A stretch of DNA of 63,578 bases from Spirochaetia bacterium (GTDB lineage Bacteria > Spirochaetota > Spirochaetia > CADAEX01): assembly GCA_017554185.1 (NCBI GenBank), contig JAFZIU010000009.1, forward strand, positions 1 through 63,578. The letters run 5' to 3'. The position numbers were made by a program, and so were the translations under genes. Under the pieces are notes generated by a model, which made no database searches, had not been told where the DNA came from, and was given only the letters and a program-made list of their open reading frames with translations. Below, in pieces: positions 4,516 to 57,134 of the stretch. Within the stretch, counting starts at the first letter, position 1. Every line of letters starts with the position of its first letter.

Positions 4516-4564
4516 ACGCAAAAAAAATCAATTTTGCTTCAATTTTTGAGAAAAAAGTTTGAAA
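4516..4564. repeat. Conserved AT-rich element, copy 1 of 3
   Basis: ACGCAAAAAAAATCAATTTTGCTTCAATTTTTGAGAAAAAAGTTTGAAA; identical to 9169-9217. Confidence 0.95.
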
Positions 4565-4671
4565 TATTTTCATCTGTAGCATTATTTGCGACAGCAGATG
4601 AAATATGATATTATTTACATATGACACAGGTACTGGATTGTCTACAATAAAGGGGCAAGGGGAAAAGAGTT

Positions 4672-5676
4672 ATGGATAAAAAAGTTAAAATAACATTGTT
4701 GTCAACTATAAAAAGAGGAAGAAAGAGTACAAGATACTTAACAAAGTATAATAACAATTATGCCTCTGTTAAGTTGGATAATAATGAAAATTATTCCCGT
4801 GGAATGGAAATAGAAGTTTCAGAAAAGGAAATAAATGATAAGGAATTTAAAGAAGCTTGGGTAAAAGATATAAAATCTTGGGAAGATAAAAAAAGAAAGA
4901 TTCTAGAACATTTAAGCAAATATAAGAAAGAGAAAATAACAGAAACTGAAGGATATTGGAGAAATAAGGATGGGGATATAATTTTTTATCCCCATATCCT
5001 GCCAGATGATGAAGAAAAGAAAAATATTTTAGATTCTGCTTATAAGGCCTCAATTGAAAATCTTTACGATGAGAAAAAAAATAAAGGTAATAATGTTATT
5101 CATATAGGCTTTAAAAATCTGAATTCTTCCCAGGCATTTGCATTTAATTTTTTTAAGCCTATAATTGATGAAAATATATTCGATAAGTTATTATCAGATT
5201 CGCAAATTTCAACTATTGATGAATCAGATTTTGAGAAAAAAAATCCAGATAGAACTCAGTTCGATTTTTTCTTGCAATCTGGCAAGGTTAAATGTTGTTT
5301 TGAAGTAAAATATACAGAAAGTGATTTTGGCGCTGCTTCTCAGAATTCAGATTATTCAAACTACAAAGAAAAACTAAAAGAATTATTAAAAGAAAAAATA
5401 GAAAAAGAAGATTTCTTTGATGAATATCAATTGTGGAGAAATATTATTTTTGCTTTGGACGGTTATCAGGTCTTCTTTGTATTTCCTAAGTTTAGGGATG
5501 ATTTAGCAAAAAAAGTCGAAGACGCTAAAAATAAATGTAAAGATAATTTCAAAGATAATATTAAGATTCTCTATGTTAATGATTTTGTAGAAAAAATGAA
5601 AAATTCTGAAAACAAAAAATTACGAGATCATTATACAGAGTTTTCTAAGAAATACTTGGAAATACCAACAATCTGA
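4672..5676 (+). CDS. PGN_0703-family putative PD-(D/E)XK restriction-like endonuclease
   Basis: NLNSSQAFAFNFF and TQFDFF...FEVKYTESDFG motifs; strongly AT-rich. Confidence 0.65.
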   Translation: MDKKVKITLLSTIKRGRKSTRYLTKYNNNYASVKLDNNENYSRGMEIEVSEKEINDKEFKEAWVKDIKSWEDKKRKILEHLSKYKKEKITETEGYWRNKDGDIIFYPHILPDDEEKKNILDSAYKASIENLYDEKKNKGNNVIHIGFKNLNSSQAFAFNFFKPIIDENIFDKLLSDSQISTIDESDFEKKNPDRTQFDFFLQSGKVKCCFEVKYTESDFGAASQNSDYSNYKEKLKELLKEKIEKEDFFDEYQLWRNIIFALDGYQVFFVFPKFRDDLAKKVEDAKNKCKDNFKDNIKILYVNDFVEKMKNSENKKLRDHYTEFSKKYLEIPTI

Positions 5677-5957
5677 CCATTTGGGTTTTTATTTGCTTAA
5701 TTAATATAATATTCCACATTTCATTAGCGTTCCATCAACTATTTACCCTTGTTTGATACGATAAATAAAGCATTTGATTTTCTGATTTGCAAAAATCGAA
5801 AAAAATGCCGTTTTTGAGAAATTGTATAAAATCTTGTAATTAAATGAATTAGTAAAAAACTTTCGGTTAAAGTTATAGAATCTTTACAATTTTTAGCTGG
5901 TTTGCTATCTTGTCGCTTGCCTAAATGGGCGGAATTTTTTTATAGGAGAATCCGCAG

Positions 5958-7565
5958 TTGTTATTAGATGTAAATGACCTAGTGAGAAAAGAAAAAAAAG
6001 AGGGGATGGAAACCATCGTTTTTGCGTATGACGAACTGGACTATGCAATGAAGTTCTATGCCAAATGCCTTGAGGAAAATATCAAGCCTGTCATCGGGCA
6101 GAAGGTTATCATAGGCGGGCGCGAAGTGGTGCTCCTTTGCAAGGATGAAGAAGGGTATAGGATCCTATGCCGTCATTCTGCTGATGCAGAACGCTCATTT
6201 ACCGAGGAGGAGACTTCCCATTTTGTCTTTACAACCCTGGAAGCCGCCAATAAAGACAGCAAGCAGATTCCATATATTTTCCCTGAAGGCTATTTTACAA
6301 AAGAGAACTTTTTTAAGCGGCAGATTGATAATCTTCCTGATGTTCCCTTCCCGGCCGGCATTGGCAGTGCGGCTGAGTATCTCACCTCTCTTGTGGATAA
6401 GGGAATCAGATACAGGTATGGTGACCCGACTCCAGAGGTACAGCTGCGGATTCAGCAGGAACTTAATGCAATAATCTCAAATCATCTGGAGAAATATTTC
6501 CTTTTAATTTGGGAGATGACAGCCATGTGCCGTAAAAGGGGAATCCTGTATTCCACATCTTGCGATGACTCCAATGCTTCCATGATATGCTATGTGCTCA
6601 GAATCACTGATGTTGATCCCCTTAAGCACAACCTTTATTTTGAGTTCTTTATAGATCCCAGCAGAGATATTTATCCAAAAATAAATCTCTTTGTGTCAAA
6701 AAATATTATCCAGCATTTACGGAATGTTTATGGTGCTGATTGTGTGGCCTATAACATAGATAAAGAGGAATGGGAAAGGGAAGAGAAAGTTTCCGAATAT
6801 CGCCTTGGCCGTAATTTAATAATTGCAAAGAAGCCTATCTGTAACTATATTCCGGTTTATGAGAGCCCAAGAGGACTGGCCGGTTGGAATGACGGATATG
6901 CAGATGTCCCCTGCTTTAATATCCTGACAGAAGATTGCTGGGGAAAATACTCTTCAGTTGCTCATAGGACTTTCCACACAATATCATTCACAGACCGGAA
7001 AACTCTTAGCTATGTCAAAAAGAATAGGGCAAAGATTTATAGGGGTTATTGGTTCACCGACAAGGTGAAAAGACGGCTTAGAGATTTCAAGCTGAATTCC
7101 TTTGCTAATTTAGTTGTGGTGGAGGCTATTCTTAATATTTACGACGATGACCTTGCTTTGGAGCTTTTTGTAGACATTATTAACAGGCAGAAAAAAGGCT
7201 ATGAACCGCTGTTTGATGGATCTGATGAAATTCTTGGGGAGACCTATGGAAAACTCCTGTTCAAGGAGCAATTTATTCAGATTGTTCAACTGGTTACAGG
7301 GTGGAACATGGAGAAATCGGTTCTGTTCCTTCGCAATGCGGCCCGCAGAAAATATGATGAATTAAAGATACTGATGGATGAGTTCATGGAATGTGCTGTG
7401 AAGTTCGGGCTTTCTTGCGATGTCGCTAAAGAACTGTTCGCCACTTTACAGGATTCGGCAGTCTGGCTGGTATCCAAAGCTTGGTGTCTGGGACAGGCTA
7501 AGTATGTTTGGCAGGATTCATATCTGAAGGCACATTATCCCAAGGCGTTAATTTCGAAAAGGTGA
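5958..7565 (+). CDS. Truncated, catalytically degenerate DNA polymerase III alpha (DnaE) homologue
   Basis: DnaE landmarks ITDVDPLKHNLYFEFF, ETYG...EQ..Q and YLKAHYP; PDIDxD replaced by PKINLF and KxDxL by CFNIL; ends right after YLKAHYP. Confidence 0.8.
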   Translation: MLLDVNDLVRKEKKEGMETIVFAYDELDYAMKFYAKCLEENIKPVIGQKVIIGGREVVLLCKDEEGYRILCRHSADAERSFTEEETSHFVFTTLEAANKDSKQIPYIFPEGYFTKENFFKRQIDNLPDVPFPAGIGSAAEYLTSLVDKGIRYRYGDPTPEVQLRIQQELNAIISNHLEKYFLLIWEMTAMCRKRGILYSTSCDDSNASMICYVLRITDVDPLKHNLYFEFFIDPSRDIYPKINLFVSKNIIQHLRNVYGADCVAYNIDKEEWEREEKVSEYRLGRNLIIAKKPICNYIPVYESPRGLAGWNDGYADVPCFNILTEDCWGKYSSVAHRTFHTISFTDRKTLSYVKKNRAKIYRGYWFTDKVKRRLRDFKLNSFANLVVVEAILNIYDDDLALELFVDIINRQKKGYEPLFDGSDEILGETYGKLLFKEQFIQIVQLVTGWNMEKSVLFLRNAARRKYDELKILMDEFMECAVKFGLSCDVAKELFATLQDSAVWLVSKAWCLGQAKYVWQDSYLKAHYPKALISKR

Positions 7566-7580
7566 TAAGGAGAAGGTAAT

Positions 7581-56120: not shown

Positions 56121-56146
56121 AAACCCAGCCTTTTGGCTGGGTTTTT
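56121..56146. terminator. Bidirectional intrinsic terminator
   Basis: AAACCCAGCC-TTTT-GGCTGGGTTT between convergent genes. Confidence 0.9.
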
Positions 56147-56170
56147 CTTTGTACTTGTGGGGTAGAAAAG

Positions 56171-56395
56171 TTACAGCGCTGCCACCTGCTCGGCAGTCAG
56201 GCCAGTGATTTCAGAGATTACATCAAGCGGAATATTCTTTTTTTTCATGCCCCGGGCGTCTTCTATCTTTGCTATCTCTATACCTTCTTCTACCCCCTTT
56301 TCATGGGAGGCAAGCAGTCCAGATTCATAGTCAACCCGCCCTTTATAGCGGCTCTCCTGTATGGCCCATTCGCGTTCGTCATCGCTTATTGTCAT
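56171..56395 (-). CDS. Putative intragenic small Rpn antitoxin (74 aa, in frame)
   Basis: AGGAGA RBS followed by ATG of MTISDDERE at 56395, in frame with the host gene. Confidence 0.5.
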   Translation of the reverse strand: MTISDDEREWAIQESRYKGRVDYESGLLASHEKGVEEGIEIAKIEDARGMKKKNIPLDVISEITGLTAEQVAAL

Positions 56396-57052
56396 AAGTA
56401 TCTCTCCTGCTTCCCGAATACCCTTGCTGCTACTCATAATGCTGTTCAATAGTTCTCTCTTGCTTTTATCAGTAATGTACTTTAAAAATATAACCCACTT
56501 TTCTATTTCTGTAAAGTTTTTTGACTCTCGCTCTCTTTCACAGATCTTGACCAGCGGCATCTGTATGAAGATTATCTGCAGGTTGTCGACAAGCTCAGTA
56601 TCTCCGTTCCGCATTGTGAATGTCTGCATGTATCCACCCTCTTTGTCGAAAAGGGTGAAGTCGGTGAACATAATTTGATAAACTCTGGGCAACTGGTGGT
56701 AGTGCTTTCCCTGCATGTCAAAGCTGGATAGCATCCTGCATCCATAGTAGAGGGATCTGGCTTTAAGATTGTCATTGCCCATGCAGGTCTGCATCTCGAT
56801 GTTGATCCGCTGGCCGTCGGACATCCTGCACTGGAGGTCAAGCCGTATATCCTTAGCATACATGACTTCTGCGGGGAGTTCGTTATTCATGACCTCCACC
56901 GACTTCGGCTCATGCCCTATGATTGCCCCAACCAGCTGCTTCAGGGCATCCCTAGACTTTTCTTCTTCCCTTGTGAAAAGGGATTTGAAGGTGCTGTCAA
57001 TCCTTGGATCCAGCAGCTTCTTGTTTTCTGGAATGAAATTTTTCTTATCCAT
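56171..57052 (-). CDS. Rpn/YhgA-like PD-(D/E)XK nuclease (PDDEXK_2)
   Basis: LLDPRIDSTFK.LF, IRLDL..INIEMQ, RSLYY; C-terminus G...I...TGLT.EQV. Confidence 0.92.
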   Translation of the reverse strand: MDKKNFIPENKKLLDPRIDSTFKSLFTREEEKSRDALKQLVGAIIGHEPKSVEVMNNELPAEVMYAKDIRLDLQCRMSDGQRINIEMQTCMGNDNLKARSLYYGCRMLSSFDMQGKHYHQLPRVYQIMFTDFTLFDKEGGYMQTFTMRNGDTELVDNLQIIFIQMPLVKICERERESKNFTEIEKWVIFLKYITDKSKRELLNSIMSSSKGIREAGEILMTISDDEREWAIQESRYKGRVDYESGLLASHEKGVEEGIEIAKIEDARGMKKKNIPLDVISEITGLTAEQVAAL

Positions 57053-57088
57053 ACTTAGTTCCTCCTAAATTGAACTACCTAAGTAACA

Positions 57089-57134
57089 CAAAAAAAATCA
57101 ATTTTGCTTCAATTTGGGAGAAAAAAGTTTGAAA
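57089..57134. repeat. Conserved AT-rich element, copy 3 of 3
   Basis: 44/46 identical to 4519-4564 (TT>GG), same orientation. Confidence 0.93.

Follow-up and report, generated by a model that had tools for sequence, protein, structure and literature searches.

A 63,578-nt stretch of contig JAFZIU010000009.1 (positions 1 to 63,578) of a Spirochaetia bacterium, called the window below, carries three copies of a short non-coding element, here termed E, each of which heads a nuclease or toxin gene. A pattern search with the 46-nt core gave exactly three matches in the whole window, all on the + strand, and 0 matches in 100 shuffles. The cores of copy 1 (4519-4564) and copy 2 (9172-9217) were free of mismatches, and that of copy 3 (57089-57134) had two (44/46). 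Copies 1 and 2 were identical across 49 bp (4516-4564 and 9169-9217). These results, obtained by the search and by direct reading of the sequence, agreed with the first-pass annotation in the number, positions, shared orientation and identity of the copies. A hidden Markov model (HMM) built from 19 contexts extended the conserved unit to ~68-77 nt, longer than the 46 bp, and placed it on the - strand at 4499..4574, 9152..9227 and 57074..57141 for copies 1, 2 and 3, respectively; the same model detected no further diverged copies in the 63.6-kb window. Copies 1 and 2, spaced by 4653, also appeared in a 66-nt direct-repeat family (D20) of 83-86% identity.

The genes behind the copies all lie on the - strand, and Pfam assigned them as the first reading had. 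Copy 1 heads a 171-aa PBECR3-family nuclease/toxin gene (3978..4493; PF18812, 1.4e-9), whose ATG is only 25 nt from the core, without room for another promoter. Copy 2 heads hicA (62 aa, 8898-9086; Pfam HicA) and hicB (127 aa, 8518-8901; Pfam HicB), a module found in the same form in at least 23 contigs. Copy 3 heads a gene for an Rpn-family PDDEXK_2 recombination-promoting nuclease/toxin (56171..57052; PF12784, 1.1e-40), the homologues of which are named Rpn family and labelled Spirochaetia by NCBI. Rpn proteins are known as toxic DNA endonucleases with antiphage activity (PMC10400941).

Read in the gene direction, copy 1 consists of AAACTTTTTTCTCAAAAA, TTGAAG (4542-4537), a 20-nt spacer, TCTATA (4516-4511), AGGTA and a Shine-Dalgarno sequence (SD) AGGAG (4505-4501), followed by the ATG at 4493. 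Copy 2 has TTGAAG at 9195-9190, a downstream box TAATAG at 9169-9164 and an orphan SD AGGAG at 9159-9155, and copy 3 has TTGAAG at 57112-57107, a box TTACTT at 57086-57081, an SD AGGAGG at 57066-57061 and the ATG at 57052. Copy 3 also bears a 3' extension (GTTACTTAGGTAGTTCA) common to the elements of Rpn paralogues elsewhere. The distance from element to SD on the - strand was 13, 12 and 22 nt for copies 1, 2 and 3. An AGGAG after each copy, as annotated, was therefore present at 12-22 nt, but that of copy 2 does not serve hicA: a sigma-70-like promoter of hicA's own (TTGACT-17-TAAATT, 9129..9101, - strand) stands between copy 2 and the hicA start codon, so that the AGGAG at 9159-9155 serves no gene. 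The motif TCAATTTT, reported as doubled at 11-nt spacing, was so in copies 1 and 2, but in copy 3 the second unit reads TCAATTTG. A degenerate pattern of the boxes matched only the three copies across the window, plus two sites with 2-3 mismatches within hsdR.

Copies 1 and 2 lie in a variable island. Its conserved left-hand anchor is argG (argininosuccinate synthase, 2601..3863, + strand) and its right-hand anchor is an LD-carboxypeptidase (LDC) gene (9281..10327, + strand). The segment between the two copies (4565..9171) contains a REase-ARP gene, a truncated PolIII-alpha-like open reading frame (ORF), ORFs of 135 and 160 aa, and hicB/hicA. Next to copy 1, a divergent sigma-70-like promoter block (4575..4650, + strand; TTGCGA-17-TATTAT with TG, 4586-4614) precedes the REase-ARP gene (4672-5676). 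This block accompanies E in 5 distinct contexts and is not found at copies 2 and 3.

Distribution and gene contexts of E

The abundance of E was estimated from metagenomes, the runs containing the window region being gut or bovine-gut metagenomes. In Logan contigs on 3000-11000, the assembly graph was broken inside E. The summed word depth at E was 217.8 in run X1 and 1780 in run X4, compared with ~9-12 and 122-150 in the respective flanks, and 32-33 contigs per run fitted both copy 1 and copy 2, with many different loose-end flanks. From the depth excess, the graph breaks and the many flanks, E is a dispersed repeat with roughly 10-20 copies per genome-equivalent, a metagenome-derived figure that may be inflated by related strains in the same samples. 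Among the loose-end flanks were at least eight further gene-side flanks with SD and ATG. Such repeats explain why short-read assemblies of these genomes break at these loci.

Copies elsewhere were located by Hamming scans and by nhmmer/HMM profiles. The window itself was absent from the species-representative genome collection. A search with a 20-mer core in a genome contig collection returned 15 matches, one of them true: a 3-kb contig (L004) of Treponema sp. RGIG8218 from buffalo rumen. A degenerate pattern gave three true matches out of 25 in a metagenome scan, all in JGI contigs (L018, L037 and L040). The scan of viral contigs gave 0 matches, and E was unmatched in phage and plasmid collections, where the low-complexity filter of BLAST may mask an AT-rich query. 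Further loci were fetched by exact-protein look-ups with PBECR3 and HicA, which yielded numerous contigs of the island locus, assembled independently; queries with argG and LD-carboxypeptidase added no new island variants.

Across strains, the interval from argG to LDC proved to be a hypervariable island of toxin-antitoxin (TA) and defence genes. It contains MmeI-type and GmrSD/HNH enzymes, REase-ARP, DUF6946, RelB-YoeB, two HicAB types, solo HicB, Gp49/HTH, PBECR3 and a CI-like repressor, together with 1-4 copies of E per island. The island genes standing behind E were hicA62-hicB127, hicA71-hicB126, solo hicB126, relB-yoeB, gp49-HTH and PBECR3. Outside the island, E heads six Rpn paralogues including that of the window, a KilA-N protein matching the PADLOC candidate PDC-S22 (4.8e-133; L037/L040), a 192-aa protein with a weak CdiA_C match (L004) and, as an E-like copy, a PDDEXK_3 nuclease (L080). 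Element ends lay 25-120 nt from the start codon among the recovered copies, and for PBECR3, Rpn, KilA-N, gp49 and the 192-aa gene the core was 25-36 nt from the ATG.

The pattern expected of a generic dispersed repeat, with housekeeping neighbours or mixed orientation, was looked for. All recovered copies faced the adjacent gene, in ~11 gene families, and the genes behind them are almost all TA systems, nucleases or defence candidates; the oriented placement before toxin and nuclease genes noted at first reading thus extended beyond the window. The sole non-toxin context seen was at L070, where an Rpn paralogue lies between two E-like copies (9911-9976 and 10925-10999) and the second copy, after Rpn, heads a TPR lipoprotein/OEP/RND efflux operon. 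The arrangement looks as though an Rpn module had entered at an E already present.

Conserved boxes, recombination and homogenisation of E

The anatomy of E was examined in diverged copies. Rpn homologues at unrelated chromosomal sites (L060-L085), 87, 77, 64, 61 and 53% identical to the window protein, were all directly preceded by an E-like sequence. Nineteen contexts, stacked without gaps and evaluated by their information-content profile, showed strong conservation of AAACTTTTTTCTC(A)AAA-TTGAAG-CAAAA, followed by ~13 poorly conserved positions, an invariant G-T, W-A and, a few bases on, AGGTA. The gap from TTGAAG to T-W-A-n-n-n was 20 nt in 19/19 stacked contexts. Thus the order in the diverged copies was AAACTTTTTTCTCAAAA-TTGAAG-CAAAA, a variable spacer and G-T-W-A(..)AGGTA, and the conserved boxes lay 15-35 nt before SD and ATG. 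Boxes held at a fixed distance around a free spacer have the appearance of a promoter. The second unit of the TCAATTTT repeat falls in the lineage-variable spacer, so that the doubled motif was not supported as the functional core. An IHF-like site (AATCAA in an A-tract context) was rejected as a conserved feature for the same reason.

The boxes differ from those of the usual promoters. No sigma-70 promoter (TTGACA/TATAAT-like hexamers, 16-18 nt apart) was called in E on the gene strand, as the annotation had observed, and canonical TTGACA-16/17-TAnAAT promoters were present at TA operons of the same loci. The sigma-W promoter of B. subtilis, TGAAAC-N16-CGTATA, belongs to the group 4 or extracytoplasmic function (ECF) type. 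E loosely resembles such promoters in having two short boxes, 16-17-nt spacing and a downstream G-T, most lineage-A copies reading TGAAGC-N17-CGTA. It differs from them in that the -35 box lacks AAC and several copies have T or A in place of the C of CGT (TGT, AGT), only G-T being invariant among the stacked copies; this is a resemblance only.

The island variants placed E repeatedly at the edges of exchanged units. L018 aligned to 3924-4574 and 9151-10464 of the window with a 77-nt overlap that corresponds to E; PBECR3, E and LDC are contiguous there, and the 4653-bp stretch from copy 1 to copy 2 is missing together with one copy. L018 is a 1.9-kb contig, in which a misjoin at E is possible in principle; the other variants came from k141 or scaffold assemblies with k-mers longer than E and recurred in independent samples. 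In L049 and L050, an extra unit (hicA71-hicB126 and two small genes) has E on both sides. A 700-bp block of E, relB and yoeB starts exactly at the 5' edge of E, ends at the yoeB stop and occurs with four different upstream neighbours. The LDC-side copy of E always abuts the LDC upstream flank and is followed, depending on the strain, by hicA62, hicA71, PBECR3 or relB. Upstream of solo hicB, E with its 3' extension appeared as a discrete indel of 75 nt, flanked by the terminator of yoeB and the promoter of hicB, without clear duplication beyond a run of A. In all cases, the copies flanking a unit were direct repeats.

Among eight island variants, 24 of 77 clustered homology-block boundaries (31%) fell in E, which makes up 2.8% of the island length (binomial p = 7e-19, the boundaries not being independent). 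The extension CGTTAAAGAAGTA was attached to hicA71 in L049 and to hicA62 in L050, which points to homologous recombination or gene conversion and not to a fixed crossover. No integrase, resolvase, transposase or other recombinase was found in the scanned window ORFs or the fetched island loci. Whatever the function of E, these data point to a concrete mechanism for defence-island turnover with a short promoter-like repeat as the homology: cassettes would be inserted, deleted and exchanged at E, and its copies homogenised thereby. This simple, recombinase-free route to cassette arrays could be sought in other uncultured lineages. As a separate observation, a minor Logan contig of run X4 (281 nt, depth 7.5) joins the 3' end of argG (3864) to 9165, in the gene-side flank of copy 2, pointing to a strain that has retained E in an almost empty island.

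Copies of E clustered by genome and not by gene. PBECR3 orthologues of 79-81% identity (L090 and L091) also carry E, and the 32 nt after TTGAAG were compared among them. The E of PBECR3 and that of hicA in L090 shared 96%, whereas the E of PBECR3 in L090 and in the window shared 59%, the proteins being 81% identical. Similarly, the PBECR3 copy of L091 was 84% identical to the Rpn copy of L080 and 56% identical to the PBECR3 copy of the window. Within a lineage, therefore, the copies are homogenised, or replaced repeatedly, and thus evolve in concert. As for their origin, Rpn paralogues at unrelated loci all carry versions of E that diverged along with the protein, and the window Rpn copy combines a 3' extension like that of the Rpn paralogues with a core like that of TA-type copies. 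The native promoter of an Rpn gene is therefore the probable ancestor of the expanded E family.

Possible functions of E

We regard as probable, with moderate confidence, that E is a portable, oriented head of promoter and ribosome-binding site on accessory modules of a ruminant-gut, Treponema-like spirochaete, the copies of which double as homology for recombination. The modules headed by E are TA pairs, PBECR3, Rpn and PDDEXK_3 nucleases, KilA-N and a CdiA-C-like toxin. In this model, the two boxes (AAACTTTTTTCTCAAAA-TTGAAG-CAAAA, and T-W-A-n-n-n with the invariant G before it and AGGTA after it) would be contacts for RNA polymerase or a regulator, and transcription would start a few bases past the second box on a leader of 15-35 nt that includes the SD. 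A gap of 20 nt does not suit the canonical sigma-70 promoters which the organism clearly uses at its TA operons, so that E would probably be read by an alternative sigma factor, to which the loosely ECF-like TGAAGC-N17-CGTA might point, or depend on an activator. A shared E could then place diverse toxin and defence genes under one signal. Before a TA operon with its own promoter, it would serve as a second, upstream promoter. The near-identity of the copies would allow ordinary homologous recombination or gene conversion among them, by which modules could be inserted, deleted and swapped and the copies kept homogeneous, and the 4.65-kb unit between copies 1 and 2 would be an example of a module so exchanged. 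The first-pass annotation had set a promoter or regulator site against a recombination site or mobile 5' module. A blend of both was supported by the module edges, the conservation of the boxes and the crossovers; the notion of a dedicated site-specific recombination site was not, neither a palindromic core nor a recombinase having been found.

The closest described category is that of the putative mobile promoters (PMPs), non-coding sequences of at least 50 nt and at least 80% similarity upstream of unrelated genes of one genome (Matus-Garcia, Nijveen & van Passel 2012, PMC3575422). They lie outside known insertion sequence or RNA families, their copying route is unknown, and the catalogue is descriptive and consists mostly of pairs (PMC3575422). 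E has the identity of a PMP, with copies 1 and 2 identical over 49 bp, the 66 nt of D20 at 83-86% and an HMM span of 68-77 nt, and its neighbours PBECR3, HicA and PDDEXK_2 are unrelated Pfam families; its pattern of boxes and spacer would fit the promoter activity that the name implies. It differs from the PMPs in its ~10-20 copies, strict orientation and defined bipartite boxes, in its tie to toxin and defence modules, and in its concerted evolution and documented recombination junction.

Several results weigh against the promoter-head model. No recognised sigma consensus fits E, which lacks the AAC of ECF promoters and does not conserve the C of CGT. At several TA modules, a separate promoter lies downstream of E, which is hence not needed for their expression; at these modules, the SD of E is orphan or heads an 8-codon mini-ORF. 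Such an orphan SD or mini-ORF has the look of a remnant left when the gene behind a resident E was exchanged for another. The RNA-type runs yielded a single 151-nt contig, inside hicB, together with low-depth DNA-like runs, and no transcription start was observed in them. The identity among copies of one genome (46-49/49) is far above what a promoter needs, so that much of the conservation reflects recent copying or gene conversion and not selection. The tally of gene classes is biased, since the contexts were reached through island genes and Rpn or PBECR3 homologues. Finally, E does not couple all toxins, since TA pairs without E lie in the same neighbourhood, namely a DUF1902 (HicB-like)-HicA64 pair at 10674-11113 of the window and a ParD/ParE pair next to ogt in other strains (L041/L047 etc.), both of which are present or absent depending on the strain.

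It is unlikely that E is instead an operator, or a nucleation site, at which a shared repressor or a nucleoid-associated protein silences the modules, with transcription starting elsewhere. Its AT-richness with phased T/A tracts, its position upstream of autonomous sigma-70 promoters at TA operons, and an upstream box of ~30 nt, which exceeds a -35 element, combined with the missing sigma-70 consensus, are consistent with such a site. However, no other promoter-like site was called near PBECR3, Rpn, KilA-N, gp49 and the 192-aa gene, where E is so close to the ATG, and the second box at a fixed distance, with AGGTA where a -10 region and start site are expected, speaks for a promoter. An operator is compatible with a promoter and does not exclude it.

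That E is a dedicated att-like site, at which an undiscovered recombinase inserts and excises circular cassettes as in an integron with the site 5' of the cassette, seems slightly more doubtful. Units bordered by E at either end, namely that between the first two window copies and the additional hicA71 unit of L049/L050, the E that always abuts the LDC anchor with four different modules behind it, the enrichment of breakpoints in E and the discrete 75-nt presence or absence would all be explained by such a site. The integron attC site, located at the cassette's 3' end, is imperfectly palindromic, contains R''/R' core sites and needs IntI. Loci with E resemble the TA-rich Vibrio superintegron and the chromosomal integron of Treponema denticola in that small, strain-variable cassettes are split by a conserved repeat, and superintegron cassettes, like E modules, include many TA systems with their own promoters. 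Unlike attC, E is non-palindromic, lies 5' of genes and has promoter-like boxes, and no integrase was found nearby. The attC motifs RYYYAAC and GTTRRRY and a palindrome were absent from the window copies on both strands. Inspection by eye for attC, dif and hix-like sites found neither inverted arms nor core motifs; dif-like 11-6-11 arms were not present in E, whose sole symmetry is TCAA-AAA-TTGA. The lack of integrase, resolvase and transposase genes in the window and the fetched island loci, and a fold z-score of about 0, likewise argue against an att-like site. Moreover, 69% of the island breakpoints lay outside E, the variable ends of exchange (CGTTAAAGAAGTA with hicA71 or hicA62) fit gene conversion, and the diverged copies keep promoter-like boxes without a conserved crossover core. 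The pdif modules of Acinetobacter plasmids, bounded by XerC/D 11-6-11 sites in inverted pairs, and the 'minimal mobile elements' (MMEs) of Neisseria, which exchange via conserved flanking genes as homology, are similar to E modules in being discrete accessory units, often TA, with locus content differing by strain. Unlike pdif modules and MMEs, the homology at E loci is a direct-orientation promoter-like repeat plus the argG and LD-carboxypeptidase anchors.

A bolder variant of the promoter-head model, which we consider improbable, is that E is both an alternative-sigma or activator promoter and the capture site of an integrase-independent cassette system, in which DNA breaks or strand exchange would be directed to E. 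Whatever gene came to lie behind E would then join a co-regulated toxin and defence regulon, and cassettes would move between copies. The Rpn recombination-promoting nucleases, whose own genes carry the putatively ancestral E, might be the capture agent, and the outcome would be a promoter-first analogue of the integron. The separate candidate that E is the end of an Rpn/PDDEXK_2 transposon was rejected because the 3' flanks of eight Rpn genes shared only unrelated terminator hairpins.

Similarly improbable is a selfish or neutral miniature dispersed repeat, comparable to a miniature inverted-repeat transposable element or to REP or ERIC sequences, without a role for its neighbours and positioned by tolerated insertions. 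The multiple, near-identical copies within a genome, the discrete 75-nt indel and the intergenic location in accessory islands, where insertions are cheap, would fit it. In the Correia repeats of Neisseria, ERIC and REPIN, both orientations occur, the ends are inverted repeats or a palindromic hairpin is present, and target duplications are frequent. Like E, they are short, dispersed intergenic repeats able to supply promoters and to act as recombination substrates; unlike them, E is strictly oriented and has no inverted repeats, hairpin or target duplication. Neither terminal inverted repeats nor a stable hairpin were detected in E, the ends of which (CTTTTTCAAAC... and ...CACTATTATG) are non-complementary. 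Strict orientation toward the next gene in ~11 independent gene contexts, a distance to the start codon that we counted as constant (overall range 25-120 nt), the box and spacer pattern kept before Rpn paralogues down to 53% protein identity, and the absence of E from the remaining 60 kb of the window, a second defence island among them, also argue against a neutral repeat.

A structured 5' leader RNA (riboregulator or target of a small RNA) common to the toxin mRNAs is very improbable: E does lie immediately 5' of the SD and a small hairpin GCAAAA/UUUUGC is possible, but copies 1 and 2 folded like shuffles (z = 0.0 and -0.5, a third value being -2.25), the hairpin lies in the spacer and is swapped for unrelated sequence in other lineages without compensatory pairing, and Rfam gave 0 matches at the gathering threshold in the whole window and 0 at an E-value of at most 1 in 9080-9290.

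If the promoter-head model with a single alternative sigma factor or activator is true, TA toxins, PBECR3, Rpn and PDDEXK nucleases and the KilA-N candidate would be under a single switch, which would offer a ready case for testing how a defence and toxin arsenal is jointly controlled.

Neighbouring loci and other repeats

The truncated PolIII-alpha-like ORF between copies 1 and 2, which is 535 aa long and has PHP, NTPase and finger domains, forms a trio with the 135-aa and 160-aa ORFs (5958-8481 of the window; also L046-L054). The trio was conserved in every island variant, always beside a variable nuclease set: REase-ARP; DUF6946 and GmrSD; HNH/GmrSD and MmeI; or a 288-aa unknown protein. 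It had no PADLOC match and may be an uncharacterised defence module.

The mini-ORF behind E was found at L046 18570-18620, L047 14507-14560 and L050 14207-14260, where a perfect SD and an 8-codon ORF (MKKTIIYL or MKKHTFFL) stand between E and the relB promoter, with the stop within the RelB operator palindrome. This ORF may encode a leader peptide or be what is left of a gene since replaced.

Two other repeats accompany E in other genomes, and neither occurs in the window. In cassette rows of other species (L080 8100-12560, L083 and L081), every E-like copy is closely preceded by a hairpin repeat (GGTGCCGTCAGGCACC-CTCAAATCCGTGTGA), and GCGGGCCGTAAGGYCAAGTCCTTTTCGCCGC is common to L004 2930-3000 and L076 9870-9920 directly upstream of E. 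Both motifs are possible markers of cassette 3' ends.

The 87%-identical Rpn paralogue lies beside a type III-B CRISPR-Cas (Cmr) system with Card1 and Csx1 in L060, L062 and L065 (11071-20906), and has unrelated neighbours in L061 and L064; this is another variable region edged by an E-headed Rpn gene.

The second defence island of the window (24492-33805), which has no copy of E, encodes a type I restriction-modification system (hsdR, hsdM and hsdS) with a Schlafen/AlbA_2 and HATPase_c_4 gene between hsdM and hsdS. These genes are followed by those of a 470-aa unknown protein and a DUF5677 protein, and the GC content falls to 0.30-0.44.

Most direct-repeat families of the window (D1-D6, D9 and D12) stem from paralogous arrays of DUF285/BspA-like leucine-rich-repeat lipoproteins with MBG_2 domains (39358-49392, 51406-56112 and 58623-61544). 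The coiled-coil/DUF481 genes at 50185-51387 and 57343-58623 are paralogues as well (repeat D10).

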